Both the position numbers and the translations under genes were made by a program. A stretch of 64,000 bases of DNA from Anaerolineaceae bacterium (GTDB taxonomy: Bacteria; Chloroflexota; Anaerolineae; Promineifilales; Promineifilaceae), in the NCBI GenBank assembly GCA_002699125.1, contig PABI01000032.1, positions 15,588 to 79,587 of the forward strand. The letters are read 5' to 3'. This document shows, piece after piece, positions 4,323-42,453 of the stretch. Under the pieces are notes generated by a model that did not search any database, had not been told where the DNA came from, and saw only the letters and a list, made by a program, of their open reading frames with translations. Position 1 is the first letter of the stretch. Each line of letters begins with the position of its first letter.

Positions 4323-6077
4323 ATGGGAATTTTGCAGAAAAAGTTGTGGCGTTTGGTGCTGGTCGTGCTGGCAGTGTGGTTGTTTTTCTTTTTGGCGCTG
4401 GACAGCATGGTAAATGACAGCCCAACAATGGATGAACAAAACCATCTGGCGCGGGGTGCGGCGTTTGTGAAAACGGGCGATCCCCGGCTAAGTCTGGAGC
4501 ATCCGCCGCTGGTGAACAGCCTGAGCGGCCTGCCGCTGCTGCTTCTTCCCGACTTGCACTTTCCGTTTGACCATCCCAGCTGGACCGATTTACAGCCGCC
4601 GGACGTGTATTGGTATGTCTTCGCCGACCAATTTCTCTGGCAGGTCAACCAGGACGTGAAGCGCATGATTTTTCTGGGTCGGCTGCCCATTGTCTTCTTG
4701 ACGCTGGGATTGGCACTGGTGGGGTTCCACTTTGCCCGTGATTTTTGGGGACGGCCGTCTGCCACCCTTGCTTTTATTTTATTGCTGTTTGAACCGAATA
4801 TTTTGGCAAACGGCCGTCTCGTCACCACCGATTTGGGCGGCACGCTGTTCATCACCCTGGCGCTGCTGTTGATGTGGCGTTTGTGGACGGCACCAGGTTG
4901 GGCCTGGCGGCGCTGGCTGGCGGCCGGCGTGGGGCTGGGGCTGGCTTTTGGCAGCAAGCTTTCGATGTTGACGTTTGTGCCCATCTTAAGTGTACTGGCC
5001 ATTTTGCCGATGTTTAACGCGGAGGCGCATGCAATCCCGGATTGCCGGCGCAGAGGGGTTTTTCAGAGGTTGGTGCAGTTGGGTGGGGCGGGGCTGATCT
5101 CTGTTTTGGTGGTGTGGGCGATTTTTGGGTTTGAGTGGGGGATGTTTCGGTTTCCCTCGGAGACGTTTGATTTTTTGAATCGGTTCAGCGGACCGATGCC
5201 TACGTTTTGGGCGGGCGTTGATCAGATTGTGAATGTGAGCCGGGAAGGACGTATGGCCTTTTTGCAGGGCGAATCGTCTAACCAGGGCTTTTTGCTCTTT
5301 TTCCCCGTGGCATTTTTGGTGAAGACGCCGTTGGTGCTGCTGGTGGGTTTGTTGGGGTTGGTATGGTTGGGCTGGAAACGGCCTGTACTGAGCCTGCCGA
5401 AGCGGCCGTCCACTCGCCCCAAATTACTTTTCCTCTTCATCCCCGCTGTTTTGTACTTTACCGTTAGCGTCATCAGCGACATCAACATTGGTTACCGGCA
5501 TTTGCTGCCAATTTTGCCACTCATCATTGTGGGGTTGAGTGGGCTGCCGATGTATTTTGCTGGAGAAATTCAGGATAAGCGTGAGTGGTGGCGCGGCGGG
5601 GACGCCAGCCACAGCAGAGCGGTGGCGCTGGTTTTAGCGCTGGGCATTTTGCTGCCGACGCTGTGGATTCATCCGCATTATTTGAGCTATTTCAACCTGG
5701 CGGCAGGTGGTCCGGCCAACGGAGCCTCAATTTTAGCCGACAGCAGCAACGATTGGGGCCAGGATTTGCTGCGCCTGCGGGATTGGATGGCAGAAAATGA
5801 GCAGGAAACGATCAAGCTAGGTTGGTTTGGCACGGCCGATCCTGCCTATTACGGAATTAACTTTGAACCACTGCCTGGTTTCCCCAGGGCAGAATTCTTG
5901 GCCTTGTGGGCCAATCCGCCGTTTAATCCGGAAAATCCTGAACCGGGTTTGTACGCCATCAGCGCCAGCAGCCTGTGGGAAAGCCATTGGGAAGCACGGC
6001 ACGTTTATGCCTGGTTCCGCGCTCAGGAACCAACAGACCGGATTGGGTATTCGATTTATATTTATGATTTGCGTTAA
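4323..6077 (+). CDS. GT-C fold membrane glycosyltransferase (ArnT/PMT-like), paralog of 9908-12301
   Basis: 584-aa polytopic ORF with an acidic DE motif in the first loop (MDEQNHLARG). Blocks shared with 9908-12301: LANGRL(V/A)TTD, DIN(I/L)GYRHLLP, HPHYL..FN, DWGQDL, GYSI(Y/F).Y. It lacks the shared C-terminal domain. Confidence 0.8.
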   Translation: MGILQKKLWRLVLVVLAVWLFFFLALDSMVNDSPTMDEQNHLARGAAFVKTGDPRLSLEHPPLVNSLSGLPLLLLPDLHFPFDHPSWTDLQPPDVYWYVFADQFLWQVNQDVKRMIFLGRLPIVFLTLGLALVGFHFARDFWGRPSATLAFILLLFEPNILANGRLVTTDLGGTLFITLALLLMWRLWTAPGWAWRRWLAAGVGLGLAFGSKLSMLTFVPILSVLAILPMFNAEAHAIPDCRRRGVFQRLVQLGGAGLISVLVVWAIFGFEWGMFRFPSETFDFLNRFSGPMPTFWAGVDQIVNVSREGRMAFLQGESSNQGFLLFFPVAFLVKTPLVLLVGLLGLVWLGWKRPVLSLPKRPSTRPKLLFLFIPAVLYFTVSVISDINIGYRHLLPILPLIIVGLSGLPMYFAGEIQDKREWWRGGDASHSRAVALVLALGILLPTLWIHPHYLSYFNLAAGGPANGASILADSSNDWGQDLLRLRDWMAENEQETIKLGWFGTADPAYYGINFEPLPGFPRAEFLALWANPPFNPENPEPGLYAISASSLWESHWEARHVYAWFRAQEPTDRIGYSIYIYDLR

Positions 6078-6087
6078 AATCTTTAAC

Positions 6088-6239: not shown

Positions 6240-8180
6240 GTGGATACCAGAGTAGGTACTAGGAAAAGAAAATTTGTGTGGTGGGGAACGGCCGTACTCC
6301 TACTTGCCGCTGTTTTTCGCCTGGTGCTGCTGCATGATGTGCCGCCGGGATTGTCCCAGGACGAGGTGCTGAACGCCGACATCGTGCAGTTTACTCGCGG
6401 CGGCTACCATGCGCTTTTTTTCCGCGAGGGGTATGGTCACGAGCCACTTTACCATTATTTTTCGGTGCCGTTCCAGGTGCTGCTGGGCGATAATGTGCTT
6501 TCGATACGGTTGCCGGCGGTGACGTTGGGGCTGCTGCTGGTGGCTTTGACGCTGCGCTGGGCGCGGCGCGAGTTTGGTGGGAGAACGGCCGTTCTCGCCG
6601 GAATTGGTCTAGCGGTAAGCTGGTGGCCAATTGTGTTCAGCCGCGTAGGCATCCGCCCGATTTTGGAGCCGGTGCTGCTGCTGCTGTTTGCCTGGTTTTG
6701 GCCGAAACGGCCGTATCTTGCTGGCCTGTTTTTGGGCTTGAGTTTATACAGCTACACTGGGGCCAGAGTGGTCTTTGCGATTCCAGTGCTCTTGGCAATT
6801 TATTTGTTATTCACGCAAAGGCGCAAGGAGGTAGAGAAGAGAAAGCCGGTAAGAGGAGCGCTGATTGTCTTGGCTGTGTCGTTACTGGTGGCGCTGCCGT
6901 TGTTTTTGACGCTGTGGGCGGACCCGACTTTGCAGCAGCGGGTGGATCAGTTGGCCGGGCCGCTGGAAGCGTTGCAGGCCGGCGACCCGCAGCCGATTAT
7001 GCAGAGCGTGGTAGATACCGTTGGTATTTTCAGCTTTACAGGGGATCCGCGCTGGACGTATACGCTGCCCAATAGGCCATTATTTGATTGGGGTACGGCC
7101 GTTTTCTTTTACGTCGGTTTGCTGCTGGCATTTTGGCGCTGGCGCCAGCCGCACTACGCCTTTGTGCTCATCTGGCTGGGCGTCACGCTGATTCCCAGTG
7201 CGGTCACGCCGCAGTCACCCAGTACGGTGCGGCTGGTGGGGGCGCTGCCGGTGGTTTATTTAATGGTGGGATTGGGAATTACGGCCGTTTACCATTCCCT
7301 GTCTACAATGAAAGCATTTGCCAATCAACAAAAAGCTGTTTACCTTCTGTTTACGCTGCTGCTTGTGGCATTGTTGGGTGTGAATTTGTACCGAACCATC
7401 AATGACGGTTTCATTCGTTGGCCCCAGGCCGAGACGACCCGTCTAAAGCATTATCAAACAGTTTTGCTGGATATCGCGCGCGATTGGCGGGCTCATTCCA
7501 CGGAGAATCTGGTCGTGGCCGAAGCTTTTTATGAGCCCATTGATCGTGATTCCTTGATTCGGAATTTGGGCAGCGACCCACAAGCACGGTGGGTGCAGAC
7601 GGGGCCCGAGGTGGCCGGCGCGGTGGTATTGCCTGGCGGGGGAGACGGCCGTTTCTACGTACCGGAATTTGCTTCAGTGCATCCCTCTTTACTGGCAGCC
7701 GCCGGTATCTCAACAGAGCCTCTTTTTCGCACTGAATCGCAGCCATCTTTTGCTGTTTATCACTTGCCGGTTGAACGGCCGCTTCCCGCAGTGCCGTTTG
7801 AGGCCTCGATCTCCTTTGAAAGCCGGATCAAATTAGAAGGGTATGAGCTTTTGTCGCCGGAAACCGGGGCGTTTCGCCATCTATTGACCTTTTGGCAGGT
7901 AGAAGATGCGCTGCCAGCTGACCTGAGAATTTTCATTCATGCTGTGGATGAAACAGGCAGTTTGGTGGCTCAGCATGATGGATTTGATGCGGCACCGGAG
8001 GAATTGCGGTCAGGAGATATCGTGATTCAGCATCACGTACTTGATTTGCCCGAGACGGTGGGTTCTCTGGAGTTGCAGGTTGGTCTATATACGCTTCATA
8101 ATCAGCAGCGGCTGCTGCCAGTTGGTTTTCAGAGGGATATCGTTGTTTTAACGCAGATGGTGCCCGTTGACGGAAAATAA
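6240..8180 (+). CDS. GT-C fold membrane glycosyltransferase (GT39/ArnT-like) with shared C-terminal domain
   Basis: 646-aa polytopic ORF with loop motif PPGLSQDEVLNA typical of ArnT/PMT-type enzymes. Shared C-terminal domain at 7809-8177. GTG start assumed. Confidence 0.8.
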   Translation: MDTRVGTRKRKFVWWGTAVLLLAAVFRLVLLHDVPPGLSQDEVLNADIVQFTRGGYHALFFREGYGHEPLYHYFSVPFQVLLGDNVLSIRLPAVTLGLLLVALTLRWARREFGGRTAVLAGIGLAVSWWPIVFSRVGIRPILEPVLLLLFAWFWPKRPYLAGLFLGLSLYSYTGARVVFAIPVLLAIYLLFTQRRKEVEKRKPVRGALIVLAVSLLVALPLFLTLWADPTLQQRVDQLAGPLEALQAGDPQPIMQSVVDTVGIFSFTGDPRWTYTLPNRPLFDWGTAVFFYVGLLLAFWRWRQPHYAFVLIWLGVTLIPSAVTPQSPSTVRLVGALPVVYLMVGLGITAVYHSLSTMKAFANQQKAVYLLFTLLLVALLGVNLYRTINDGFIRWPQAETTRLKHYQTVLLDIARDWRAHSTENLVVAEAFYEPIDRDSLIRNLGSDPQARWVQTGPEVAGAVVLPGGGDGRFYVPEFASVHPSLLAAAGISTEPLFRTESQPSFAVYHLPVERPLPAVPFEASISFESRIKLEGYELLSPETGAFRHLLTFWQVEDALPADLRIFIHAVDETGSLVAQHDGFDAAPEELRSGDIVIQHHVLDLPETVGSLELQVGLYTLHNQQRLLPVGFQRDIVVLTQMVPVDGK

Positions 8181-8230
8181 AGCTGTAGGTATATTTGCTT
8201 TTCATATTTTAAAAGGATTTGGAGGAAAAA

Positions 8231-9832
8231 ATGGAGTCAACAGAAAGGGAAATTAGTACGTCCAAAGGACGTTTCAAAATATTACTGACATTCATCGTAG
8301 CCATCGCTGGCTTGTTTGTATTGATTCAAACCCTGGCTATTTCAATGACGAGTGGGACAACGCCGACCTATGCGCAAGGCCCCGTTATTACCCCTACTTT
8401 AACCACAGAAGAAAAAATTCAAGAATACATTGAGGCTCATACGATTCAAGGGGACGTAATGCCAGAGGCTACCCCCGAGGCAAGTGAGGCCGTGGAAGAA
8501 CCCCAAGGTGTTGCTGACCTGGATGTTGCCTGGAGCGGCAACACGAGTATGGTCGGTAATCCCGGGACGACGGTTACCTATATGCTCACCTTGTCTAATG
8601 TGGGCAGTGAAGATGACACCTACGATATTACGGAAGCCTCTGGGTGGGCAATCTCGCTATCCGGTACATCCTTTCCAGTTACCGGCGGCTCCTCCACGCC
8701 CGTGAGTGTGACGATTACAGTGCCTCCTGCCGCGATGATTAGTGATTCGGATACGGCCGTTATCACTGCCACCTCCCAAACGGATGGAATGGTAAGTGCC
8801 GTCATAACATTAACGACAACGGCCGGTTCTGAAGTCCTGTATATGCCGATAATGTTCAAAGCCCTTCTGGCTCCAACCCTATCAGCTACCCGTCCGAACA
8901 GCGCCAATGATTGGCAAATGAACTGGACCGATAGCAACATGAATAAAACAGGATTTGAGCTGCAGCAATCCACAGACTCAACATTTGCCAGCAATGTAAC
9001 AACTTACAATTTGGCCAGCAATGTTTCTTCCCAACTGATTAACAACATCGAACCCTCCGCAAGCAACGTTTACTATTATCGTTTGCGCACCCTGGGTGAT
9101 GGCCAATCTAGTCCCTGGTCTCAGGTTGTTGCGGTTGCCGGTGCTTACTACGATGAATTTACCAGCAATCAAACAGGCTGGTCTGGTCCTAACACCTTGA
9201 AAGAAGGTATGCGACGTTTGACCTACATTGAAAAGGTGGACGCCTGGTATGAAAACAGCGACTGGTTGATTATTCGTGTGGAAGATTCTTGGGATTGGGC
9301 CATCGCCAGTCCTATGCTGCCCGCGCCAGAACCGCCCTATGTTATTGAATTTCGCTCAAAACCGGCCAATTTGGGTAACCTGGTTTCTCATGGGTTTGTC
9401 TTTGGTGGCGATTGGACCGGCGCACCTTGTCCAGATTGGAGTACCATCTTAGGCGTTTATGCCCACAAGAACTGCTTTAACCATTTCTACAATTCCAATC
9501 TCATCTGGTCTTCTGACACAGACTTGACCCTGTTGTGGGAACGCGTGGACAATCTGGTTTATTGCCCCAGCTGTGGCGGCAGCCCGTTGAAGCGGCTGGG
9601 TGATGCGTCGATTGTTTTACCTTTCCATCCCAATGCATCTGACTGGAATAGGTATCGTATAGAGGTGCGTGAATCAGATATTAAGTTCTTTATGAACGGC
9701 GATCTTCGCCTGACATATAATGACACGCGCTGGATTGACGATCCTTACTTTGGTGTGTTTGCTTCCACGGATGAATACAGTAACTCTACCTGGCGCTTTG
9801 ACTATATTCGGATAACACCTCTGGATAATTAG
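8231..9832 (+). CDS. Membrane-anchored extracytoplasmic protein (beta-sandwich modules plus ConA/LamG-like C-terminal domain)
   Basis: ATG at 8231 is preceded by GGAGGA (8221-8226). TM anchor ILLTFIVAIAGLFVLIQTLAI. CARDB/NEW3-like (TVTYMLTLSNVGSEDDTYDI) and FN3-like (YYYRLRTLGDGQSSPWS) segments. The C-terminal NRYRIEVRESDIKFFMNGDL resembles DUF1080/LamG-type jelly rolls. Domain calls are from memory. Confidence 0.7.
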   Translation: MESTEREISTSKGRFKILLTFIVAIAGLFVLIQTLAISMTSGTTPTYAQGPVITPTLTTEEKIQEYIEAHTIQGDVMPEATPEASEAVEEPQGVADLDVAWSGNTSMVGNPGTTVTYMLTLSNVGSEDDTYDITEASGWAISLSGTSFPVTGGSSTPVSVTITVPPAAMISDSDTAVITATSQTDGMVSAVITLTTTAGSEVLYMPIMFKALLAPTLSATRPNSANDWQMNWTDSNMNKTGFELQQSTDSTFASNVTTYNLASNVSSQLINNIEPSASNVYYYRLRTLGDGQSSPWSQVVAVAGAYYDEFTSNQTGWSGPNTLKEGMRRLTYIEKVDAWYENSDWLIIRVEDSWDWAIASPMLPAPEPPYVIEFRSKPANLGNLVSHGFVFGGDWTGAPCPDWSTILGVYAHKNCFNHFYNSNLIWSSDTDLTLLWERVDNLVYCPSCGGSPLKRLGDASIVLPFHPNASDWNRYRIEVRESDIKFFMNGDLRLTYNDTRWIDDPYFGVFASTDEYSNSTWRFDYIRITPLDN

Positions 9833-9907: not shown

Positions 9908-12301
9908 ATGCGTAAAGAAGGGATTCAAGCCATTGGGTCTGAGTGGAGGCGTTTGGGGTGGCTTTTGCTCATTTTTTTGTCGTTTTTTGGCCTCGCAATA
10001 TCCAATCTTTCCCAACTATCACCAACATTTGATGAACAAGGTTTTATTACCAGAGGCCTGGGCTATCTGCGTGGTGAAAACCAGCATATGCGCGTGGGCC
10101 ATCCCCTGGGCCTAAACGGGTTGAATGCGGCTTTGCTGGTGGGAGATGATACGGTGCAGCTGCCTACATCGGACCCCTCCTGGCAGCTGTCCAGTTTTCA
10201 TCGCCCTTCTGAACTGTTTTTATGGGAAATTGGCAATGACGTTGCGCACGTCATGTTTCTGGCTCGGCTGCCGACCATCTGGCTGGGGCTGCTGCTGGTG
10301 GCGCTGGTGGGCCGGTGGGCCTGGGAATTGACCCAACGAAGCTGGGCGGCTCTGCTGGCAATGGTATTAGCAGCCTTTGATCCCAATTTGCTGGCCAACG
10401 GCCGTCTGGCTACCACCGATTTTGGATTAACTTTTTTTGCTTTTTTGGCTGGCTTTTTGCTGTGGCGTTTTGGTAAACGGCCGTCCTGGCCACGTGCCAT
10501 TTGGGCTGGTGTTGGCTTTGGCCTGCTGCAAAACACAAAATTTACCGCCGGTCTGTTTGTTCCACTTTTCGCGCTGGTTCTTCTTTTGTTTGTCGTTAGC
10601 TGGTATCGACAATCAACGCTGAAACCGCCACTTTTTAGTTGGAACTCGCCGCTGGTTATACTGGTGGTTGCCTTTCCGCTGGCTGCTTTTTTGACCTTGT
10701 GGGCTGCCTATGGTTTCCAGGTTGGTACCTTGCCCGACGGTTTGCCCACCATGCCGCAGCTGGCCGGACTCACCGTGCCGCTGTCGCACCATTTGGAGCA
10801 GCTGCTGGACATTGGCGGGCGGCTGCAAAAAAGCACGCCCGCGTTTCTGATGGGCAGTTATTCTGACAGCGGTTGGTGGTATTATTTCCCGGTTGCCTTT
10901 GTGCTCAAGACGCCGCTGCCCACCCTGATTTTGCTGTTGGGAACCGGAGGGGGGCTGCTGTGGTTAGGCGTTCGTCAATGGCTGGCTGGCCGCAGGCTGA
11001 GTTTAGCCGCATTGTTGATTCCGCCATTGGGTTACTTTGGCTTTGCCCTGACGACCGATATTAATTTAGGCTACCGACATCTGTTGCCGGTGCTGCCTTT
11101 TTTCTTTGTGCTTATCGCGGTAGTCTTGTTTTGGCTGAGTGGGGAAACGGCCGTTTCAACAAGCTCACTATGGGCTCTTTGGCAGCGTTACCAACAAATC
11201 GCGCTTGTGGGTTTGGTAGGTTGGCTGGCCGTGATCGCCTTTTGGCTGCACCCGCACTATCTGGCATTTTTTAACGTCTTCGCCGGCGGGCCGGACGGTG
11301 GCTGGCGCTATCTGGTCGACAGCAACCTGGATTGGGGTCAGGATTTGGGCGGCTTAAAAAACTGGATGGATGAAAATGGTGTCGAGCAGGTGTGGTTGAG
11401 TTATTTTGGTGAAGGACGGCCGTCTTATTATAACATCAACCACATCGGCCTGGACAGTTTTCCACCCCGGCTGATGAATCCACAGGCACGGCCGTTTTAT
11501 CCCCTTGACCCTGCACCCGGCATCTACGCCATCAGCGCCACGACGTTGCAGGGGGTTCATTTTGCTGACCACGACACGTTTGTCTGGTTTCGCCATAAGG
11601 AGCCACTGGACAAGGTAGGCTACAGCATTTTTTTGTACGAGGTGCCACCCTATGGCGAACCTACCGATGTGGTGCTGGCAGGTTTGCAGCTAGATGAGAT
11701 CGCCCCGGAAGATTTTGCCCGGTTCCAAACCAACCAGGTGACGCCGCGCTGGGTGAATGCCGATAGCGCATTTTTTCAGCCTGCCGCAGCTGAGTTCTGG
11801 TTGGCCGAGCGTGAAGGTTTTGAAATGGAGTGGATGGAGACGGCCGTTTCCCGCCAGCCCATCACCGAAAATGAACAATATTCCCTCTACCGCGTGCAAA
11901 GCAACAGCCAAACGGTCGTAGCCAGCCACCAATTTAGCCTGGCCGAACACCGAATTGAACTGCTGGACCAGCCGCCCACCGTTTTGCTTCAAGATGACAT
12001 TTTGCAGTTAACCACTCGCTGGCGCAATGAAACTGGTCCGGTTCCACTGAAAATCTACGTTCATCTGCTGGACGAATCAGGCCAAATCGCTGCCCAGTGG
12101 GATGGCCTGGATGTGGCTTGGGAGGGTTGGCGTGCCGGGGACATTTTGTGGCAACAGCACGCCATCGCGCTGCGGCCCGAGCTGCCCGCCGGGCCCTACG
12201 ACCTGCGCGTTGGATTGTATGATCCAGCAGCAGGCACCCGCTGGCAAACGGCTGACGGTGCCGATTTTGCCTACCTTACAACTGTGGAGGTGGCCCCGTG
12301 A
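9908..12301 (+). CDS. GT-C fold membrane glycosyltransferase (ArnT/PMT-like) with shared C-terminal domain
   Basis: 797-aa polytopic ORF with first-loop FDEQGF motif. Paralogous to 4323-6077. Shared C-terminal domain at 11933-12298. Confidence 0.85.
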   Translation: MRKEGIQAIGSEWRRLGWLLLIFLSFFGLAISNLSQLSPTFDEQGFITRGLGYLRGENQHMRVGHPLGLNGLNAALLVGDDTVQLPTSDPSWQLSSFHRPSELFLWEIGNDVAHVMFLARLPTIWLGLLLVALVGRWAWELTQRSWAALLAMVLAAFDPNLLANGRLATTDFGLTFFAFLAGFLLWRFGKRPSWPRAIWAGVGFGLLQNTKFTAGLFVPLFALVLLLFVVSWYRQSTLKPPLFSWNSPLVILVVAFPLAAFLTLWAAYGFQVGTLPDGLPTMPQLAGLTVPLSHHLEQLLDIGGRLQKSTPAFLMGSYSDSGWWYYFPVAFVLKTPLPTLILLLGTGGGLLWLGVRQWLAGRRLSLAALLIPPLGYFGFALTTDINLGYRHLLPVLPFFFVLIAVVLFWLSGETAVSTSSLWALWQRYQQIALVGLVGWLAVIAFWLHPHYLAFFNVFAGGPDGGWRYLVDSNLDWGQDLGGLKNWMDENGVEQVWLSYFGEGRPSYYNINHIGLDSFPPRLMNPQARPFYPLDPAPGIYAISATTLQGVHFADHDTFVWFRHKEPLDKVGYSIFLYEVPPYGEPTDVVLAGLQLDEIAPEDFARFQTNQVTPRWVNADSAFFQPAAAEFWLAEREGFEMEWMETAVSRQPITENEQYSLYRVQSNSQTVVASHQFSLAEHRIELLDQPPTVLLQDDILQLTTRWRNETGPVPLKIYVHLLDESGQIAAQWDGLDVAWEGWRAGDILWQQHAIALRPELPAGPYDLRVGLYDPAAGTRWQTADGADFAYLTTVEVAP

Positions 12302-16268: not shown

Positions 16269-16299
16269 AATCTGCGTTAATCTGCGAAATCTGCGGATT
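16269..16299. repeat. AATCTGCG word repeat, three direct copies (period 9-10)
   Basis: aatctgcg at 16269-16276, 16279-16286 and 16288-16295. It fills the gap between convergent genes and encodes the last codons (SADFAD) and the stop of the minus-strand gene. Confidence 0.85.
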
Positions 16300-34204: not shown

Positions 34205-35307
34205 AATCAATGCTCGGCGTGCTCACACGCATCCCTTTATTTAAACTGTATCGGCGGTTTGGCTGGCCTCAAATGCTGCCGCTCAATATTACGCTCTCCC
34301 CATCGCCCAAGTGCAACTCCCGCTGCCTTACCTGTAACATCTGGATGAAGCGGGAAAACGAACTCGACCTGGATGAATGGGACAAAGTGCTGGCCTCGCT
34401 GGGCAAAGCGCCGTACTGGTTTACCATCAGCGGCGGTGAACCGCTCATGTTTCCCCACATTGTGGAGCTGACCAAGCTGGCTTACAAACATTGCCGGCCG
34501 GGCATCATCAACATCCCCACCAACGGCATTCTCAAAAGTGGCCCGGAGCGCGTGCGCGAGATTCTGGAATATTGCACTGACTCCCAGCTCATCATCAACC
34601 TGTCGCTGGATGGTGTGGGCGAAAAGCACGACTTCATTCGCGGCGTGGCGGGTAATTTTGAGAAGTTTGAGGAGCGGCTGGAGCAATACCTGGCGCTGCG
34701 TGACGAGTTTCCTAACCTGGCGGTGGGGATTCACTCGGTGGTTTCCGTGTTCAGCGTGGGACATCTGGATGAACTGATCACTTACGCCGAAAATTCCCGG
34801 GCCGACCAGTTCATCACCGAGATTGCTGAGCCGCGCGTAGAGCTGGACACAGTGGGCCTGCCCATTACTCCCAGCCCGGAACAATATGCCGAGGCCATCG
34901 ACAAGCTGATTGCCTACGTCAACAGCAAGCAGTACAAAGGCGTGGCCAAAATTACCGAAGCGTTCCGCGTGGAATATTACAAGCTGGTGAAGCGCATTTT
35001 AGACGAGCAGGACCAGGTGATTGGTTGTTATGCCGGCTGGGCCAGCGCCCAAATTTACGCCGACGGCACCGTTTGGCCCTGCTGCGTCCGTGCCGACGAT
35101 TTAGGCAACCTGCGCGAGCATAACTACGATTTTAAGGAAATCTGGTTTGGCGAAAAAATCAAAGAAGTGCGCCGCTCCATTTACGAGAAGGAATGCCACT
35201 GCCCGTTGGCCAACGCCAGCTACACCAACATGTTGATGGACGTGCCCACGGCCAGCCGAGTGGCAGCCAAAGTGATTTCGCCAAGCTCTATTGAGGTACG
35301 GCCGTAA
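34201..35307 (+). CDS. Radical SAM / SPASM-domain enzyme
   Basis: ATG at 34201 overlaps the upstream stop (ATGA). CX3CX2C motif in SPSPKCNSRCLTCNIW. GGEPLMF SAM-binding motif. The C-terminal Cys cluster (CYAGW...WPCCVRADDLGNL...CHCPLAN) fits a SPASM/twitch domain. Confidence 0.85.
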   Translation: MKSMLGVLTRIPLFKLYRRFGWPQMLPLNITLSPSPKCNSRCLTCNIWMKRENELDLDEWDKVLASLGKAPYWFTISGGEPLMFPHIVELTKLAYKHCRPGIINIPTNGILKSGPERVREILEYCTDSQLIINLSLDGVGEKHDFIRGVAGNFEKFEERLEQYLALRDEFPNLAVGIHSVVSVFSVGHLDELITYAENSRADQFITEIAEPRVELDTVGLPITPSPEQYAEAIDKLIAYVNSKQYKGVAKITEAFRVEYYKLVKRILDEQDQVIGCYAGWASAQIYADGTVWPCCVRADDLGNLREHNYDFKEIWFGEKIKEVRRSIYEKECHCPLANASYTNMLMDVPTASRVAAKVISPSSIEVRP

Positions 35308-35752: not shown

Positions 35753-36727
35753 ATGAATGTAACAGTTACAGGTGCAACGGGATTTGTGGGTGGGGCGCTG
35801 GTGCGTGCTTTACTGGCTGAGGGGCATAAGGTGGTGGGCGTGAAACGGCCGTCTTCCACTCAACCAACCTCACAGCACCCATCCTTCACCTGGGTCAACG
35901 GCGATGTGACCGATCCAACTAGTTTGCACGGCCTCTTTGACGGCGCGGATTGGCTTATTCACGCCGCCGGCATGTTGGGGCAGGCAGGCGTGCCGGAGCA
36001 AGCTTACTTTGCATTGCACGAACAGGGCACGAACAATGTCCTGGCCGAGGCCGAAAAGACAAATGTGGGCCGTATTTTGTACATTAGCAGTCCCGGCGTG
36101 CTGGGGCCAATCAGTGGGCCGCCGGCCGATGAAACCGCGCCGCTGGCTCCCAGCAATCCGTACGAGCGCAGCAAAGCAGCGGCCGAGCAGGTGGCGCAAG
36201 TGTACGCCAGTGCCGGCCTACCGGTGGTCATCGCCCGGCCGGAATTTATTTATGGTCCGACTGATTTGCACGTGTTGGGGCTGTTTAAGGCGGTGCGCGA
36301 CGGCCGTTTCTTCACCATCAACGGCGGGCAGAACCATTGCCACCCAACCTACATTGATGATGCGGTGTCTGGGATGCTGCTGGCTTTGGTGAACGGTCGT
36401 CCTGGCGAAATTTACCACATCACCGGGCCGGAGCCGGTAACGTTTCGCGAGCTGGGGCAGACGATTGCGGCTGCGCTGGATGTGCCGCCGCCGGGCTTGA
36501 ACCTGCCGCGTTGGTTGGCCTGGCTGGGGGCAACGGGATTGGAGCTGGGAATGGGTTTGTTAAATAAGGAGCCCCCGCTCAGCCGCACCGGCGTCGCCTT
36601 TTTTAGCGAAGACCGCCGCTTTTCCTGGCAGAAAGCACATGAAGAACTGGGCTACACGCCCCAATGTGACCTGCCACGCGGCGTAGCCGAAACGGTGGCC
36701 TGGTATCGGGCAAACGGGTTGGTGTGA
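35753..36727 (+). CDS. NAD-dependent epimerase/dehydratase (SDR family)
   Basis: VTGATGFVGGALV (GxxGxxG) and YERSKAAAE (YxxxK) motifs. Confidence 0.9.
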   Translation: MNVTVTGATGFVGGALVRALLAEGHKVVGVKRPSSTQPTSQHPSFTWVNGDVTDPTSLHGLFDGADWLIHAAGMLGQAGVPEQAYFALHEQGTNNVLAEAEKTNVGRILYISSPGVLGPISGPPADETAPLAPSNPYERSKAAAEQVAQVYASAGLPVVIARPEFIYGPTDLHVLGLFKAVRDGRFFTINGGQNHCHPTYIDDAVSGMLLALVNGRPGEIYHITGPEPVTFRELGQTIAAALDVPPPGLNLPRWLAWLGATGLELGMGLLNKEPPLSRTGVAFFSEDRRFSWQKAHEELGYTPQCDLPRGVAETVAWYRANGLV

Positions 36728-37525: not shown

Positions 37526-37574
37526 TTTTCACAGATTTGGACGAAAAATCAGTGGTTATCTGTGTTTATCAGTG
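37510..37574. repeat. Nested inverted word repeats (CACTGATA / CACAGAT ... ATCTGTG / TATCAGTG)
   Basis: cactgata at 37510-37517 and cacagat at 37530-37536 are mirrored by atctgtg at 37558-37564 and tatcagtg at 37567-37574. The cluster spans the stop of 36731-37525. Confidence 0.6.
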
Positions 37575-37606
37575 TCCTATTTAGAGACAAACAACGAAAC
37601 GCATTC

Positions 37607-39907
37607 ATGATGACTCAGATAAAAAACAGATTGCAGCGCATTGACCCCGGCTATTGGGTCGTTTTGGCGATCTGCCTGCTGGCGGTGTGGCCGTTTATTG
37701 GCCGGGCCAGCCTGCCGCAGCAGACGGATGCGGAGCTGCATATTTTTCGCCTGGCAGAGCTGAGCTTTTTGGTGCGCGGCGGCGAATTTTATCCACGATG
37801 GGCCCCCAACTTTTATCACGGTTACGGCTACCCTATCTTCAACTACTACGCGCCCTTGAGTTATTATGTTGGCCTGGTTTTTGAGCTGCTGCCTGGCCTG
37901 GATGCGGTGGCCGGGGTGAAGGCAGTGTTTGTACTGGGGCTGTTGGGAGCCGGATTCGGGATGTATGGGTTTGTGCGCGACAACTGGGGACGGCCGTCTG
38001 GCTATCTGGCGGCAGCAGTGTATGTGTATGCCCCGTATGTGCAGTATGTGGACCCCGTCGCCCGCGGTGCGCTGGCCGAAGCGTTTAGCCTGGGCGTGTT
38101 TCCGCTGGCGCTGTGGGCGTTGGACCGCTTGCGGCGGCAGCCAACCTGGGGGCGCTGGGTGACGGCCGTTCTCCTCATCGTTGCCGTTATTTTAAGCCAC
38201 AACCTGATGGCCCTGCTCTTTTTTGGCCTGTTGGCAGCCTGGGTGCTTTGGCAAACCATCGTCCGTCAGGCGGATACTGCTGGACTGCGCTGGCTGTGGG
38301 CGGCGTTGGGGCTGGGGTTGGGAATGGCCGCCTTCTTCTGGCTGCCCGTTTTACTGGAGCGCAACGCCGTTAATCTGGATACGCTAATTGGTGCCGGGGA
38401 CAATTACGACTTCCGTACCCACTTTTTAAGCTGGGGCGAGATGCTGGCCGCCACGCTGCGCCTCGATTGGGGCGCAACGGAGCCGGTGTTCCGTTTTAAT
38501 TTGGGGCTGGCCCAGTGGATTTTAGGCGGCGCGGGACTCATTTTATTGCTGCTGCGGCGTGTAAAGCAGGCCAGGCAGGTGCTGTTTTTTGCGTTGGCAA
38601 CGGCCGTTCTCGTTTTTATGCTGCTGCCCGCCTCTACCTTTTTGTGGGAGGCGACGCCTTTTTTGCCTTTTTTCCAATTCCCCTGGCGGCTGCTGGGCGG
38701 CACGGTAGCCATGCTGGCCGTTCTGGCTGGTGCCGGGGTAAAGGCTGTGCAGACAAATTGGCCTAAGCTGCGGGGATGGGGCACGGTTACGGCCGTTACC
38801 TTTTGTCTCCTTACCGCGCTGCCTCTCACCCAACCGGCACCCTGGCCTGACTTCGGCGATGTGTTCCCCTTGCGCATGTCGCTCATCGAAAATTCCGGGC
38901 GCTGGCTGGGAACCACCTCCACCGCCGACTACGTCCCGGCAACGGTGGACATCATTCCCGAGCGCAAAGGCAGCGTAGTGGTGGGCTTTATCAATGAGGA
39001 ACCGCTGGATCGCGTGAACCGGGCGACGCTGCCCGGCGGTGCGGAGGTAATCCATGAAGAGGTAAGCCCGCTCCATTTGCGCTTTAACGTGAACTCGCCA
39101 GAAAAATTCCTGCTGCGCCTTTTCCTTTTCCAGTTTCCGGGTTGGACGGTGACTGTAGACGGCGCGCTGGTGAAGCCAGAATTGGCCCGCCCGGAAGGCT
39201 TCATGGCCATCCCGGTGCCCGCCGGTGAGCACATGGTGGATGTACAGTTCCGCGATACGCCGCCGCGCCAGATTGCCTGGGCGATAACGGCCGTTTCTCT
39301 TTTGCTTATGGCGGTAGGCGGCTGGCGCTTGCGCCAAAATGAGGGCAAATTTAGCCTGCCGGACCAACTGACGATGACCGACTGGCGCGTTTTAGGGGCG
39401 GCGCTGCTGGTTTCGGCCATCACGCTGCTGATTCTTGGCCCATTGCAGCTGCTTCATTACAATTCCACCGGCTACGTGGCGGAACCGGCACAGGTCGATC
39501 GCCTGGATGATTTTGGTGGCCAGATTGCTTTGATTGGTTTTGATGCGTCGGCAGAAACGGCCGTGCCCGGTGAGCAGGTGACCGTGACCCTGTACTGGCA
39601 GGCTCAAACCAGCATGGCCATTAATTTCCAAAGCTTTGTGCACCTGCTGCGGCCCGATGGCTCATTGGCGGCACAGTCAGACCACCTGAATCCGGGCGAA
39701 TTTCCCACCCGCCGCTGGCCGCTTGACAAATATGTGCGTGATGTCCACATCCTACAACTGCCGCCTGATTTGCCCCCCGGCGAATACCAGCTCACGGCTG
39801 GACTATGGGTGCAAACCGAGGGCTGGCGCTTGCCGCTGCTGGATGCCAACGGCAATCAGGTAGATGATAAGGCAGCACTTTTTACTTTGACAGTCGTCGA
39901 TGACTGA
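37607..39907 (+). CDS. PTPS-related-family GT-C-like membrane protein with shared C-terminal domain
   Basis: Start moved to ATG 37607. ELHIFRLAELSFLVRGGEFYPRWAPNFYHGYGYPIFNYYAPLSYY matches my memory of the '6-pyruvoyl-tetrahydropterin synthase-related' membrane protein family. Shared C-terminal domain at 39506-39904. Confidence 0.8.
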   Translation: MMTQIKNRLQRIDPGYWVVLAICLLAVWPFIGRASLPQQTDAELHIFRLAELSFLVRGGEFYPRWAPNFYHGYGYPIFNYYAPLSYYVGLVFELLPGLDAVAGVKAVFVLGLLGAGFGMYGFVRDNWGRPSGYLAAAVYVYAPYVQYVDPVARGALAEAFSLGVFPLALWALDRLRRQPTWGRWVTAVLLIVAVILSHNLMALLFFGLLAAWVLWQTIVRQADTAGLRWLWAALGLGLGMAAFFWLPVLLERNAVNLDTLIGAGDNYDFRTHFLSWGEMLAATLRLDWGATEPVFRFNLGLAQWILGGAGLILLLLRRVKQARQVLFFALATAVLVFMLLPASTFLWEATPFLPFFQFPWRLLGGTVAMLAVLAGAGVKAVQTNWPKLRGWGTVTAVTFCLLTALPLTQPAPWPDFGDVFPLRMSLIENSGRWLGTTSTADYVPATVDIIPERKGSVVVGFINEEPLDRVNRATLPGGAEVIHEEVSPLHLRFNVNSPEKFLLRLFLFQFPGWTVTVDGALVKPELARPEGFMAIPVPAGEHMVDVQFRDTPPRQIAWAITAVSLLLMAVGGWRLRQNEGKFSLPDQLTMTDWRVLGAALLVSAITLLILGPLQLLHYNSTGYVAEPAQVDRLDDFGGQIALIGFDASAETAVPGEQVTVTLYWQAQTSMAINFQSFVHLLRPDGSLAAQSDHLNPGEFPTRRWPLDKYVRDVHILQLPPDLPPGEYQLTAGLWVQTEGWRLPLLDANGNQVDDKAALFTLTVVDD

Positions 39908-39985: not shown

Positions 39986-42262
39986 ATGTCCTCACTTCTG
40001 ATGAACTTCTATCGCAAACGGCCGTTCTTGAGTCTGACCCTCATTTTTACGCTGCTGGCGGTGCTTTTCCTGCACCGGGTGCTGTTTCCGGCCGAGGGGA
40101 TGGCACTGGCGGGGCTGGATGCGCGCAGCTTGTTTTATCCGTGGTGGGAATTTGCGCGGACGGCCGTACGCTCCGGCCATCTTCCCCTGTGGGATGCCAA
40201 CAGCTTTAGCGGCTACCCTTTTTTGAGCAATCCGCAGGTAGCTCTGTTTTATCCGTTGAACTGGCCGCTGCTCCTGCTGCCGGTGCGCTTTGCCCTCAGC
40301 TGGCACGTGCTCATTCATCTGGTGGTGGCCGGGCTGGGAATGTTTTTACTGGTGCAGCACCTCAGTGGCAGTCGTGCCGGAGCGTGGTTGGCGGCGCTGA
40401 CGTTTGCCTTTAGCGGTTTTATTGCGGCGCGAATTTGGGCAGGACACATTGGCCTCCTTGCTACGGACGTGTGGCTGCCCTGGCTGCTGCTGGGCACAGC
40501 GTGGAGCGTCCAGCGGCGGAGTGTCTGGTCGGCGATCATCGCCGGCGTGCCGCTGGCCCTGGCGATTTTGGCCGGGCACACGACCTCACTGCTGTACATC
40601 GGGTTGATCTGGGGGCTGTTTGCCATTTATCAGTTATGGGTTAACCACAACCGCTGGCTCGTTGTGCGGCAGATGGCGATTATGACAGTGCTGGGTCTTT
40701 TGCTGGCCGGGGTACAGCTGGTGCCGCTGGCCGAATTTTCTTCCGTTTCCTCCCGCGCCGCCGAACCAACCTTTGAATTTGCCACGGCGTATTCATTGCC
40801 ACCATCGCACATCATCACCTGGCTGCTGCCGGAATTTTTTGGCGAGCCAACGCGGGCCGGCTACTGGAGCGTGCCCGCGTTTGACGAGCTGACTTACTAT
40901 GTTGGACTATTGCCACTGCTGGGAGTGGCAATAGCGCTGCGTAAACCATCGAAATTGGGCTGGTTTTATCTGGCGCTGGTTGTGCTGGGCTTTTTGCTGG
41001 CGCTGGGCAGCTACGGTTTTCTCTACGGCATCTTTTACGATTTGCTGCCGCCGTTCCGCCTGGCGCGGGCACCGGGGCGGGCGGCGTTTTTGCTGGTGTT
41101 TGCCCTGCCGGCGCTGCTGGGTGAAGCAGTGGCTCGATGGGAGCAGGTTGATTGGGGCGAGAAGCAGGTTGGTTTTATGCGCTGGCTGGTGGGGGGAACG
41201 GCCGTTGCCATCCTAACTTCTTTAGCCGCCACCGGGGCAGTGTTTGCGGCGCAACATCCCACAGGGACAAGCGGCCGTTTATGGCATCAACTTGGTGGGT
41301 GGGGAATTGCGCTAATTGGTGTGGTGGCTGGCGGTTGGCTGCTTGGGCGGTTTTTTGCCGAGAGGGATGCAGCGAAGAAAAAATGGTGGTTGGGCGGATT
41401 AACGCTGCTGCTGTTGGCCGATTTGTGGATCTTTGGCTTTAAATTGGTGCAGGTGGGGGGAACGGCCGTTGATCCGCTGTGGACTGATGCTAAACAAATC
41501 ATTGGTGAGACGGAGCTGCGGGTGCTGCCCTGGGGCATCTCCATTTTTGAGCAGAACGGCGCAGCACAGGTGGGTTTGGACTCTGTGTTTGGCTACAACG
41601 CGCTGGAGGTAGGGGCCAACATCGCTTTTGCCTCGTCGGTGCCCGATCCGCGCTCCACGGCATACGATATTTTGGGCGCGGGCACTGTTGTGTCCACGGC
41701 GCCGCTGCAAGGTGTTGAGGATGGGGAACGGCCGTTGCAGCTTTTAGGCAATACGGCGCGCGTCTGGGTTTACCAGCGGGGACGCACTTTGCCCCTGGCC
41801 CGGTTGGTGACCCAGGTAGAAATCATTCCCGATGCGGCCCAGGCTACAGCTCGCGTGCACCAGCCTGATTTTGACCCCGTAACCACAGCAATTTTAGAAG
41901 CAGAGCCGGATTGTGTTTTACCGGGCGGTGTTAGCGAGGGAACGCCTGCACTGAGCGGGGCCGAAGTGGCCGTTATCAGCGAAAAGGCCAACGGCTTCTG
42001 GCAAATTCAAACGAACAGCCCCACGCCGGCACTGTTGGTTCTAAGCGAGACGGCCTATCCGGGTTGGCGGGTGTATGTTGACGGGGTAGAACAAGAATGG
42101 CAGATAGCGTATACGGCCGTGCGCGCCACCTGTGTCCCAGCCGGGGAACACACAATCGAATGGCGCTACCAGCCGCGCAGCTATATGTTTGGCGGATTGT
42201 TGTCGCTGTTGGGATTGGTTTTGGTGGGAACGGCCGTTTTTATGGGGAGGCGTAAATCATGA
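39986..42262 (+). CDS. YfhO-family GT-C membrane protein
   Basis: SFSGYPFLSNPQVALFYPLNW near the N-terminus. The C-terminal ETAYPGWRVYVDGVEQEW...VPAGEHTIEWRYQP is typical of YfhO. Confidence 0.85.
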   Translation: MSSLLMNFYRKRPFLSLTLIFTLLAVLFLHRVLFPAEGMALAGLDARSLFYPWWEFARTAVRSGHLPLWDANSFSGYPFLSNPQVALFYPLNWPLLLLPVRFALSWHVLIHLVVAGLGMFLLVQHLSGSRAGAWLAALTFAFSGFIAARIWAGHIGLLATDVWLPWLLLGTAWSVQRRSVWSAIIAGVPLALAILAGHTTSLLYIGLIWGLFAIYQLWVNHNRWLVVRQMAIMTVLGLLLAGVQLVPLAEFSSVSSRAAEPTFEFATAYSLPPSHIITWLLPEFFGEPTRAGYWSVPAFDELTYYVGLLPLLGVAIALRKPSKLGWFYLALVVLGFLLALGSYGFLYGIFYDLLPPFRLARAPGRAAFLLVFALPALLGEAVARWEQVDWGEKQVGFMRWLVGGTAVAILTSLAATGAVFAAQHPTGTSGRLWHQLGGWGIALIGVVAGGWLLGRFFAERDAAKKKWWLGGLTLLLLADLWIFGFKLVQVGGTAVDPLWTDAKQIIGETELRVLPWGISIFEQNGAAQVGLDSVFGYNALEVGANIAFASSVPDPRSTAYDILGAGTVVSTAPLQGVEDGERPLQLLGNTARVWVYQRGRTLPLARLVTQVEIIPDAAQATARVHQPDFDPVTTAILEAEPDCVLPGGVSEGTPALSGAEVAVISEKANGFWQIQTNSPTPALLVLSETAYPGWRVYVDGVEQEWQIAYTAVRATCVPAGEHTIEWRYQPRSYMFGGLLSLLGLVLVGTAVFMGRRKS

Positions 42263-42453
42263 ATGGAAACAAACGAGCAGACATCAAAATCGGTCAGCAC
42301 GTGGCTATTGTGTTGAAGCAAGATCAGCGCAGCGGCAAACGTACTGAAGGCGTAGTGCAAGCGATCCTTACTAAATCGGCCACGCATCCCCACGGCATCA
42401 AGGTGCGCCTGAAAAGCGGTGCCGTTGGGCGCGTAAAAGAGATTTTGGAATAG
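42259..42453 (+). CDS. YwbE-family small conserved protein
   Basis: ATGA overlap with the YfhO gene. DIKIGQHVAIVLKQDQRSGKRTEGVVQAILTKSATHPHGIKVRL closely resembles Bacillus YwbE as I remember it. Confidence 0.8.
   Translation: MNGNKRADIKIGQHVAIVLKQDQRSGKRTEGVVQAILTKSATHPHGIKVRLKSGAVGRVKEILE

Follow-up and report, generated by a model that had tools for sequence, protein, structure and literature searches.

A 38-kb chromosomal supercluster of eleven GT-C-type genes with a predicted role in extracytoplasmic envelope glycosylation in a marine Anaerolineae genome

The genome of an uncultured marine member of the Chloroflexota (a metagenome-assembled genome, MAG, from Anaerolineae/Promineifilaceae; assembly GCA_002699125.1, contig PABI01000032.1) contains, within the 64,000-nucleotide stretch analysed here (positions 15,588 to 79,587 of the contig, hereafter the window), a cluster of genes coding for eleven polytopic proteins of the GT-C glycosyltransferase type. 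The cluster spans positions 4323-42262 of the window and measures 38 kb together with the 64-aa open reading frame (ORF) at 42259. Its gene content suggests an outer-face cell-envelope glycosylation supercluster that would use polyprenyl-phosphate-sugar donors and would consist of several merged three-component modules, a reading to which we assign a probability of about 0.68. Most likely, the cluster builds or decorates an envelope glycan by known chemistry at unusual scale. A previous reading of the bare nucleotide sequence (the sequence-only reading) had already proposed, from gene content, a GT-C-rich locus for glycosylation on the outer face with lipid-phosphate-sugar donors, and this proposal stands.

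Support for a multi-module glycosylation locus comes from the assignment of the GT-C proteins (through profile matches, paralogy, homologue transitivity and fold) and from acidic first-loop motifs in seven of these proteins, with a DD pair that is invariant in the family of the protein encoded at 14364. It also comes from two putative donor synthases, one similar to dolichyl-phosphate mannose synthase (DPMS) and ArnC (24722) and the other to AglJ, PpgS, DPMS and ArnC (27080), and from a Wzx-like and an MprF-flippase-like protein. Further support is given by start/stop overlaps, short intergenic gaps and the conserved order of a core module and of the left half of the cluster, and by the Wzt-like fold of a C-terminal domain shared by eight cluster proteins, for which an acceptor-binding carbohydrate-binding module (CBM) provides a precedent (PMC11127046). 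Genes and proteins are referred to throughout by the first coordinate of the gene in the window.

Eleven proteins of the GT-C type

ORF calling reproduces the genes at the coordinates given in the sequence-only reading, and its count of eleven GT-C-type proteins between 4.3 and 42.3 kb is borne out. GT-C genes thus make up about half of the genes (11/23, counting those of at least 64 aa) in the 38 kb, with none in the remaining 26 kb of the window, and eleven of them in a segment of this size is far above chance expectation. Eight of the eleven exceed the Pfam gathering scores of PMT/PMT_2, YfhO or PTPS_related, while the other three were assigned by paralogy (12298), by the PMT_2 domain of its homologues (16277) and by fold (14364). 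PMT, PMT_2 and PTPS_related are members of the Pfam GT-C clan CL0111 (PMC7801869), and YfhO is described as a predicted GT-C enzyme that glycosylates teichoic acids (PMC5836110, PMC8035078). The eleven genes, which span at least four sequence families, are as follows.

4323..6077, + strand: GT-C 1, PMT/ArnT-like, 584 aa; PMT 36.6 and PMT_2 35.7 bits; MDEQNH at residue 36
6240..8180, + strand: GT-C 2, PMT_2, 646 aa; PMT_2 33.9 bits; SQDEVLNA at residue 39; shared domain at about 7740-8177
9908..12301, + strand: GT-C 3, PMT/ArnT-like, 797 aa; PMT 48.5 bits; FDEQGF at residue 41; shared domain at about 11936-12298
12298..14367, + strand: GT-C 4, divergent PMT_2, 689 aa; PMT_2 20.1 bits (below cut-off); YHDEAYNG at residue 30; shared C-terminal domain
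14364..16265, + strand: GT-C 5, family without Pfam model, 633 aa; LDDAWIHF with its DD pair at residues 44-45; shared C-terminal domain
16277..18235, - strand: GT-C 6, divergent PMT_2/GT39-like; PMT_2 E 0.006 over nearly the whole model; shared C-terminal domain
18171..21053, + strand: GT-C 7, YfhO, up to 960 aa; YfhO 53 bits; 11 transmembrane (TM) segments; paralogue of the 39986 protein
21050..23197, + strand: GT-C 8, PMT_2, 715 aa from the ATGA-overlap start; PMT_2 64.1 bits; SPDEVDHF; shared domain
28618..30096, + strand: GT-C 9, PMT_2, 492 aa; PMT_2 35.4 bits; GPDEDDHY at residue 37; 9 TM segments
37562..39907, + strand: GT-C 10, PTPS_related/YfhO-like, 781 aa; PTPS_related 38.4 bits; shared domain at about 39497-39904
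39986..42262, + strand: GT-C 11, YfhO, 758 aa; YfhO 42 bits; 11 TM segments

By hydropathy, each GT-C protein has about 7-12 hydrophobic segments. All seven acidic DE/DD motifs quoted in the sequence-only reading are present and lie at residues 30-57, right behind the first hydrophobic segment; acidic residues also follow the first TM segment in the 16277 protein and in the three proteins of the YfhO/PTPS type. With respect to the types named in that reading, PMT/PMT_2 and PTPS_related proteins and two YfhO proteins were recovered, whereas the postulated DUF2142-like type was not, as DUF2142 matched no cluster protein. The 4323 protein, with nine TM segments and without the shared C-terminal domain, is a 35%-identical paralogue of the 9908 protein, and the proteins encoded at 12298 and 6240 are paralogues along their full length (27% identity in 713 columns, blastp E 1.7e-29). 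The YfhO score of the 37562 protein is 28.1 bits against a cut-off of 28.5. Full-length, about 50%-identical homologues of the 16277 protein carry PF13231 or bear the source names GT39 or ArnT-like; the real start of this gene is probably at 18181, as in the deposited, 100%-identical MAT96469.1, which gives 634 aa. The 18171 gene possibly starts at 18264 or 18318. Searches of the PDB with the single sequences of the 14364, 16277, 18171 and 37562 proteins yielded nothing significant.

The fold was checked by a structure model for one protein only, that of 14364, whose family has more than 500 homologues in Anaerolineae/Chloroflexota. Both aspartates of its PLDD motif, D44 and D45, are invariant in 36 homologues, and the AlphaFold2 model computed from the alignment of these 36 (pLDDT 89.9) consists of a helical bundle (residues 7-391) followed by a beta-rich soluble part. 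In a Foldseek comparison with the PDB, the top 14 matches were all GT-C enzymes (E 4e-8 to 9e-4), with STT3, ArnT (TM-score 0.58), ALG9/12, PglB, AftB, DPY19, Pmt4 and AftA among them. The eleven proteins are predicted to use polyprenyl-phosphate-sugar donors, and their soluble domains probably face the extracytoplasmic side.

Putative donor synthesis and transport of lipid-linked sugars

Interspersed with or just upstream of the GT-C genes are genes that could supply and translocate donor sugars, and one for a conserved membrane protein.

24722..27004, + strand: DPMS-type polyprenyl-phosphate-sugar synthase; GT2 domain, four-TM GtrA/DPMS domain and C-terminal extension of about 360 aa
27080..27865, + strand: polyprenyl-phosphate-sugar synthase-like GT2, soluble, 261 aa; NCBIfam and PDB matches
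27894..28625, + strand: S-adenosylmethionine (SAM)-dependent methyltransferase, 243 aa; Methyltransf_11 68.9 bits
30097..31842, + strand: non-GT-C membrane protein, 581 aa; 3 TM segments; shared domain at about 31399-31839; conserved core-module member
31839..33086, + strand: Wzx-like (MOP/Polysacc_synt) flippase, 415 aa; PF01943 31.9 bits against a cut-off of 28.2; 11 TM segments
33323..34204, + strand: generic GT2, 293 aa; Glycos_transf_2 90.1 bits; not clearly of the synthase type
34201..35307, + strand: radical SAM/SPASM (twitch-type) enzyme; Radical_SAM 48.4 and SPASM 40.3 bits; N_Twi_rSAM E 9e-24
35753..36727, + strand: extended short-chain dehydrogenase/reductase (SDR) of the NAD-dependent epimerase/dehydratase family; Epimerase 136.5 bits
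36731..37525, + strand: soluble protein, 264 aa; no Pfam/NCBIfam match; between the SDR and the PTPS_related GT-C, 3 nt past the SDR stop
2079..3065, - strand: flippase-like LPG_synthase_TM/UPF0104 protein (MprF flippase-domain type), just upstream of the cluster

Three GT2 enzymes of the polyprenyl-phosphate-sugar-synthase type had been proposed from the sequence. Two of them, 24722 and 27080, keep this assignment, whereas the 33323 protein is a generic GT2 by its best matches (6yv7 from the PDB, a family 2 glycosyl transferase, E 9e-11; DPMS only 1e-4). In the 24722 protein the GT2 domain (Glycos_transf_2 96.4 bits) is fused, as proposed, to a four-TM domain of the DPMS type, which scores 25.9 bits against the GtrA_DPMS_TM cut-off of 26.1; residues 34-343 match the Pyrococcus Dol-P-Man synthase 5mlz including its TM domain (E 2e-38) and also ArnC (E 4e-17). 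The conserved C-terminal 360 aa (25922-27004) had no Pfam, NCBIfam or PDB match. This fusion is widespread, with full-length homologues (33-37% identity, residues ~26-735) in Sphaerobacter, Streptomyces and Micromonospora. A stand-alone GtrA/GtcA gene was not found in the locus, its GtrA-type TM domain being the one fused to the synthase. The 27080 protein matches the NCBIfam models of AglJ (1.7e-22), PpgS (1.4e-21) and a Dol-P-hexose transferase (9e-17), all below the equivalog cut-offs, and, in the PDB, DPMS (1.4e-7) and ArnC (1.3e-6).

The methyltransferase, the radical SAM/SPASM enzyme and the SDR are all matched by Pfam, in agreement with the sequence-only reading; the best NCBIfam match of the SDR, an HpnA-like sugar epimerase (4e-48), lies below cut-off. 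Together with the two synthases and the third GT2, these enzymes could supply several donors. Both putative flippases named from the sequence hold as well, the Wzx-like protein through PF01943 and the 2079 protein, which has at least six TM segments, through PF03706 (E 1.5e-38) and TIGR00374 (58.6 bits, over cut-off). The 30097 protein, which matches no Pfam or NCBIfam model, was rejected as a GT-C enzyme on account of its three TM segments (one N-terminal, two central) and its two large, presumably extracytoplasmic regions.

Since the 14364 model has ArnT among its best fold matches, and since the locus includes an ArnC-like synthase and has an MprF-flippase-like gene beside it, it might also be thought to modify the head groups of membrane glycolipids in the manner of ArnT, and not wall polymers or proteins. 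We consider this very improbable, as the window shows no lipid A pathway, genes for 4-amino-4-deoxy-L-arabinose synthesis (ArnA/B/D) are lacking, and large extracytoplasmic beta-sandwich domains would be unnecessary for such a modification; Chloroflexota are generally regarded as being without lipopolysaccharide.

A shared C-terminal beta-sandwich domain

All-against-all BLAST revealed a homologous C-terminal domain of about 115 aa on eight cluster proteins (E 1e-5 to 6e-20), namely on seven GT-C proteins from three families (6240, 9908, 12298, 14364, 16277, 21050 and 37562) and on the non-GT-C protein 30097. The domain is new here, having been found by this analysis, and resembles the Wzt carbohydrate-binding and the ML domains. 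Neither the search of the PDB with a domain profile nor the Pfam scan gave a significant sequence match, and a Pfam scan of the eight copies at E <= 10 returned only weak matches to Wzt_C (0.013) and ML (0.016). Its structure model is a confident all-beta sandwich (pLDDT 95.5), the nearest folds being the ML/NPC2 lipid-binding and the Wzt carbohydrate-binding domains (TM-score 0.45-0.57, Foldseek E 2.5e-4 to 3e-3), followed by ApaG, RhoGDI and glycosidase Ig-like domains; the Wzt match (TM-score 0.5-0.57) includes one entry with bound 3-O-methyl-mannose. Like the C-terminal domain of Wzt and ML/NPC2, the shared domain is an Ig-like beta-sandwich of ~115-140 aa with weak matches to these same two Pfam families. 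However, it has no significant sequence similarity to Wzt_C or ML, and in Wzt the carbohydrate-binding domain belongs to the cytoplasmic part of an ABC transporter, while the shared domain is predicted to be extracytoplasmic on GT-C enzymes.

A profile search of 1.84 billion representative proteins retrieved 33,415 proteins at E <= 1e-3, 10,461 of them at E <= 1e-30. The best-scoring matches are 900-1400 aa long and have three or four tandem C-terminal copies, and nine of them scanned by Pfam carry N-terminal PMT_2, TMEM260-like (DUF2723), PTPS_related or YfhO domains, with the shared domain never covered by a Pfam model; the named examples are from Chloroflexota. In a distant Chloroflexia MAG, a polytopic protein of the DUF2079 family (locus L082, 7846-9870, - strand) also ends in this domain. 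By these sequence relationships, it is a large, un-named family of accessory domains of bacterial GT-C enzymes. Its invariant or nearly invariant residues are W, Q, D, G, F, P, P, W, D, Y and R, and such aromatic and polar residues would, we infer, be in place in a sugar-binding site, where they are common.

The C-terminal Ig-like CBM of a GT-C enzyme of family GT136, which acts in a three-component system, binds the acceptor polysaccharide (PMC11127046), and EmbC and AftD are cited there as further GT-C enzymes with such a CBM. By analogy, acceptor binding is predicted as the most economical role of the shared domain; an ML-like handling of lipids may be the alternative.

Gene packing and a possible mechanism

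With respect to gene packing, all six four-nucleotide ATGA/GTGA start/stop overlaps noted in the sequence-only reading are present (12298 with GTGA, 14364, 21050, 31839, 34201 and 42259). In addition, 28618 overlaps its upstream neighbour by 8 nt, the junction at 30097 has zero nucleotides, and most other same-strand gaps in the cluster are shorter than 80 nt. In turn, with its gaps of 236-445 nt and two genes on the opposite strand, 16277 and 23203, the locus would comprise at least four or five transcription units. The best promoter-like site in the cluster lies upstream of the first GT-C gene:

4284..4313, + strand: sigma-70-like promoter candidate, TTGTCA-18-TATAAT, 11/12 positions; 10 nt upstream of the first GT-C gene

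Promoter-like sites as a whole are no more frequent than expected by chance, and a scan for terminator-like structures was uninformative, its matches falling mostly within T-rich membrane-protein genes.

The following sequence of steps may be envisaged. In the cytoplasm, the two DPMS/ArnC-type GT2 enzymes (24722 and 27080) would load sugars from nucleotide sugars onto polyprenyl phosphate, and the SDR, the radical SAM enzyme, the methyltransferase and the third GT2 would diversify the donor sugars. The Wzx-like protein 31839 would then move the lipid-linked sugars across the membrane, possibly assisted by the MprF-flippase-like 2079 protein and/or the TM domain of the DPMS-type synthase. On the outer face, the eleven GT-C proteins would use their acidic first-loop motif in transferring the sugars to an envelope acceptor, which may be a wall-associated polysaccharide and/or Thr/Pro-rich envelope proteins, while the shared beta-sandwich would hold the acceptor glycan, or else the lipid donor, beside the active site.

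Conservation and origin of the locus

Both halves of the cluster are found in conserved order in related genomes, the left half in GCA_016710325.1 (locus L081; nine to ten genes in order, 47-79% identity) and the right half in a Candidatus Promineifilaceae MAG (L004). The latter is the closest locus in the species-representative genomes and is collinear with the window from 24722 to 36731 over nine genes, with 76-95% amino acid identity. Within this segment, six genes from 24722 to 33086, coding for the DPMS-type synthase, the second GT2, the methyltransferase, the 492-aa PMT_2 GT-C, the 30097 protein and the Wzx-like flippase, form a core module whose order is kept in L004 as well as in the more distant MAGs L001 and L002 (42-82% in these two). 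All three genomes have orthologues of 28618 (62-91% identical) and of 30097. With the 21050 gene as query, metagenome contigs (L087 and L085) were found that keep the YfhO-21050 and the 21050-beta-propeller adjacencies; being short, these contigs support local adjacency and not the junction between the left and the right half. The same kind of scan with the beta-propeller gene (23203) found no relatives. Metagenomes of Anaerolineae/Chloroflexota contain hundreds of full-length homologues of the 14364 protein and likewise of the 16277 protein (47-93% identity), and the orthologues of individual GT-C proteins are ~50% identical across Anaerolineae.

The sequence-only reading had called the cluster an island. 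In the sense of acquired DNA this term had to be abandoned: the G + C content inside the region (0.48-0.61) is similar to that outside (0.49-0.60) without a step at the borders, a tRNA scan and an Rfam scan of the window gave no match, and no integrase was found at the locus. In view of these results and of the synteny and the ~50%-identical orthologues across Anaerolineae (the Promineifilaceae MAGs being syntenic), a mobile or acquired element was rejected. Rather, the comparisons indicate a chromosomal, vertically inherited supercluster with old components, the merging of which into a single 38-kb block appears to be lineage-specific.

A doubtful but not negligible alternative is that the GT-C enzymes are independent of each other, each modifying a different acceptor, and that their clustering reflects only a shared donor supply or regulation. 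The arrangement indeed differs in L082, L001 and L002, the enzymes come from at least four families with paralogues only 23-36% identical, and the reverse-strand genes and wider gaps described above imply several transcription units. In contrast, the collinearity of L081 (nine to ten genes, 47-79% identity) and L004 (nine genes) with the cluster and the translational coupling between members of different families are at odds with independence.

Likeness to known systems

In the three-component systems GtrABC, CsbB/GtcA/YfhO and that of Citrobacter with GT136, a GT2 charges polyprenyl phosphate, a flippase follows and an outer GT-C enzyme performs the transfer (PMC11127046, PMC8035078, PMC7389260). 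The systems for O-antigen (GtrA/GtrB/GtrC), for lipoteichoic and wall teichoic acids (CsbB/GtcA/YfhO) and of Citrobacter (PPPRS/MATE/GT136) share with the present locus the combination of synthase, flippase (here a candidate) and GT-C, an auxiliary epimerase and the possible presence of a C-terminal Ig-like CBM on the GT-C, and the YfhO family is represented here as well. They differ in that the present locus has eleven GT-C genes and two synthases and not one of each, that its TM domain of the GtrA type is part of the synthase, an arrangement known from archaeal DPMS, that the flippase candidates are Wzx-like and MprF-like, that genes for the acceptor polymer lie elsewhere, and that the accessory domain belongs to another, un-named family. 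By this analogy, the locus would act like a multiplied three-component system.

The sequence-only reading had compared the cluster with mycobacterial arabinogalactan and lipoarabinomannan (LAM) assembly (EmbA/B/C, AftA-D, PimE, MptA/B; PpgS/Rv3779; MtxS/MtxT). This comparison holds at the level of function, as both have, here by prediction, many GT-C enzymes acting outside the membrane with polyprenyl-phosphate-sugar donors as well as CBM-type extracytoplasmic domains, and as the 27080 protein resembles PpgS and the fold matches of the 14364 protein include AftB, AftA and PimE. It does not extend to homology of the parts: no cluster protein matched Arabinose_trans (GT53, Emb), AftA (GT85) or GT87 in Pfam/NCBIfam at E <= 0.01, decaprenyl-phospho-arabinose genes (UbiA-type, DprE-type) were not found in the locus, and the 14364 protein has only 16% identity to AftB (GT89) with a TM-score of ~0.5, no better than for ArnT or STT3. 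The mycobacterial genes, moreover, are spread over several loci and belong to another phylum.

The comparison nevertheless raises the question whether the eleven enzymes carry out a complete GT-C-driven polymerisation, i.e. extend and branch one complex heteropolysaccharide of the wall or sheath step by step, analogous to mycobacterial arabinan/LAM but independent of it, which would be the sequence-only reading in its strongest form. The number and diversity of the GT-C proteins, the tight gene packing and the presence of the same accessory beta-sandwich on seven of them and on the core protein 30097 would fit, as would the acceptor-binding CBMs that Emb and AftD also have (PMC11127046). Some homologues of 14364 are named 'arabinofuranosyltransferase' by JGI and one homologue of 16277 'methylthioxylose transferase', but these source names are automatic annotations. 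Apart from the missing family matches, the locus has neither a primer (phosphoglycosyltransferase) nor an attachment gene (LCP/ligase), the orthologues are dispersed in a distant MAG, and relatives gain or lose single GT-C genes (a PMT of 766 aa and a YfhO of 930 aa are additional in L081), which suggests modular over strictly sequential roles. We therefore regard a single stepwise-built polymer as unlikely. Equally speculative is the bolder proposal of an independently evolved GT-C assembly line for an envelope or sheath heteropolysaccharide of filamentous Chloroflexota, which would be a second 'arabinan-like' paradigm outside Actinomycetota, with the shared domain as a new CBM family tethering successive GT-C enzymes and the non-enzymatic 30097 protein to the growing polymer.

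Another system of interest is Streptococcus mutans Pgf (PgfS, PgfM1, PgfE, PgfM2), which the right-hand module of the cluster mirrors with its GT2, its epimerase-family SDR and its two YfhO-like GT-C proteins. The likeness does not pass the equivalog test (NCBIfam scores of 15.9-57 bits, with cut-offs at 500-1500). The genes also stand in another order, and the cluster has a radical SAM enzyme and the 36731 protein in addition.

Thr/Pro-rich linkers occur in three membrane-anchored envelope proteins in or beside the cluster (505-1737, - strand; 43882-45183, - strand; 8219-9832, + strand), for example as TPTNTPIPPTPTNTP repeats (TPTNTP) in the 505-1737 protein, with 80% S/T/P over 40 aa ahead of a DUF11 domain, or as a T/P-rich stretch ahead of a PD40 beta-propeller. 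One of the three lies within the cluster itself:

8219..9832, + strand: membrane-anchored secreted protein, 537 aa; Thr-rich stretch, Ig-like region and C-terminal DUF1080/lectin-like region; one N-terminal TM segment

Its Pfam matches are weak only (FixG_C 0.0014, 3keto-disac_hyd 0.0053), and an orthologue that is 71.5% identical occupies the same position in L081; it possibly acts as acceptor or accessory protein.

Such linkers are plausible targets of O-glycosylation, and the PMT/YfhO-like GT-C proteins might thus act on Ser/Thr/Pro-rich envelope linkers, like actinobacterial Pmt or streptococcal Pgf. This explanation, which partly overlaps with the reading favoured here, is tentative and rather less probable. 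Two cluster proteins match PMT proper, the right-hand module has the Pgf-like composition just described with weak NCBIfam matches to PgfM1/M2, the linker proteins flank or sit in the cluster, and streptococcal GT-C systems are reported to act on Ser/Thr-rich disordered regions (bioRxiv 10.1101/2024.05.05.592596). However, the PMT and PMT_2 profiles cover ArnT-type lipid and glycan transferases too, the PgfM1/M2 matches reach only 16-25 bits against cut-offs of 1400-1500 and are confined to the C-terminus, and no MIR domain was found in the cluster proteins. Eleven transferases also exceed the needs of known bacterial O-glycosylation systems, the shared domain looks glycan- or lipid-binding and not peptide-binding, and Thr/Pro linkers may be common genome-wide.

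The Dol-P-sugar steps of the Agl pathway of Haloferax volcanii comprise the AglJ and AglD synthases, the Wzx-like flippase AglR, the GT-C enzyme AglS and the methyltransferase AglP. The core module described here resembles this set, as its operon-like arrangement brings together an AglJ-like GT2 (E 1.7e-22) with a synthase of the DPMS type, a Wzx-like protein, a GT-C and a methyltransferase. None of the scores reaches its equivalog cut-off, though, the host is bacterial, an oligosaccharyltransferase of the AglB/STT3 type is lacking, and the 30097 protein with its shared domain is additional. Likeness to the Wzx/Wzy pathway is only partial, as Wzx is present (PF01943) and the initiating enzyme, Wzy and the chain-length regulator or ligase are not in the locus. 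Taken together, no characterised pathway matches the cluster gene for gene, in line with the sequence-only reading, which could map it to no described pathway, and a full-text literature search found no paper linking GT-C enzymes or GT39 with Chloroflexota and no GT-C cluster described there. The chemistry is of a familiar type; the locus stands out by its scale, its lineage, its presumed product and the large un-named accessory domain.

Points that weigh against the favoured reading

Several observations speak against the outer-face glycosylation supercluster as read here. By a Pfam search of the 29 ORFs between 505 and 48845, a priming phosphoglycosyltransferase, Wzy, Wzz, a ligase, LCP and an ABC exporter were not found in the locus, which would therefore encode extracytoplasmic elaboration steps and not a complete classical polymer pathway. 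Nor does the locus point to a particular acceptor. In the genome of L001, a distance of 1.27 Mb separates the orthologue of 14364 from the core module; as the orthologues are thus split over at least two loci in a distant relative, co-location need not mean one pathway. At the distant locus L082, the 14364 orthologue is accompanied by orthologues of 12298 (53%) and 39986 (49%) and by the DUF2079 protein with the shared domain, as well as by a GT2, an SDR and a DegT aminotransferase.

With respect to the shared domain, its fold matches are modest (TM-score ~0.45-0.57) and fit lipid-binding ML/NPC2 equally well; in addition, since it occurs on ~33,000 proteins across many GT-C families, its sharing is no proof of a common acceptor. 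Finally, the GtrA-type domain of the 24722 protein scores just below the Pfam threshold, and in DPMS this domain is not known as a flippase.

Other genes in and around the cluster

Two further genes belong to the 38-kb segment:

23203..24447, - strand: membrane-anchored YVTN-type beta-propeller protein, 414 aa; beta_rpt_yvtn 58.5 bits; one TM segment
42259..42453, + strand: YwbE-family small protein, 64 aa; TIGR03833 111 bits; ATGA overlap with the last GT-C gene

Between the flippase-like 2079 gene and the first GT-C gene lies a gene for a Peptidase_C39_2 and LysM protein (3139-4134, - strand), possibly a peptidoglycan-associated peptidase. Directly 3' of the cluster, a histidine kinase gene (42548-43867, + strand) combines HisKA and HATPase_c with an N-terminal effector-associated domain 7 (EAD7), an unusual pairing. 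The downstream flank consists of housekeeping genes (ffh, rpsP, dprA, a manC-like gene and topA). The manC-like gene, which the sequence-only reading had counted with the cluster, was confirmed (GMP_PMI E 1e-56). Its position, however, is past ffh and rpsP, with dprA on one side and topA on the other, and it was rejected as a cluster member because of these housekeeping neighbours and the lack of an evident link to the cluster.

The rpsP product (49039-49719, + strand) has Ribosomal protein S16 at residues 8-66 and a C-terminal extension of ~160 aa; the weak match of this extension to a contractile-injection-system tape-measure protein (E 5.6e-5, below cut-off) probably reflects a low-complexity tail. 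Topoisomerase I (53042-55519, + strand) has an N-terminal, zinc-ribbon-like DUF5679 domain (44.6 bits) ahead of Toprim. Further downstream, two adjoining genes code for LVIVD-repeat beta-propeller proteins (60859-62190 and 62229-63599, both - strand), beside which an ORF of 406 aa (59651-60871) has no family match.

Implications for the envelope biology of Chloroflexota

Chloroflexota/Anaerolineae are abundant in oceans, sediments and wastewater, and the chemistry and biogenesis of their envelope are almost unstudied. The locus described here gathers most of the predicted extracytoplasmic glycosylation machinery, its conserved parts being the six-gene core and the single GT-C orthologues (~50%), and the gene list can be used for experiments in cultured relatives. 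The shared domain, in turn, is a very large family without Pfam model that occurs on PMT_2, TMEM260-like, PTPS_related and YfhO enzymes, and the ligand of this beta-sandwich would inform on substrate recognition by bacterial GT-C enzymes in general.

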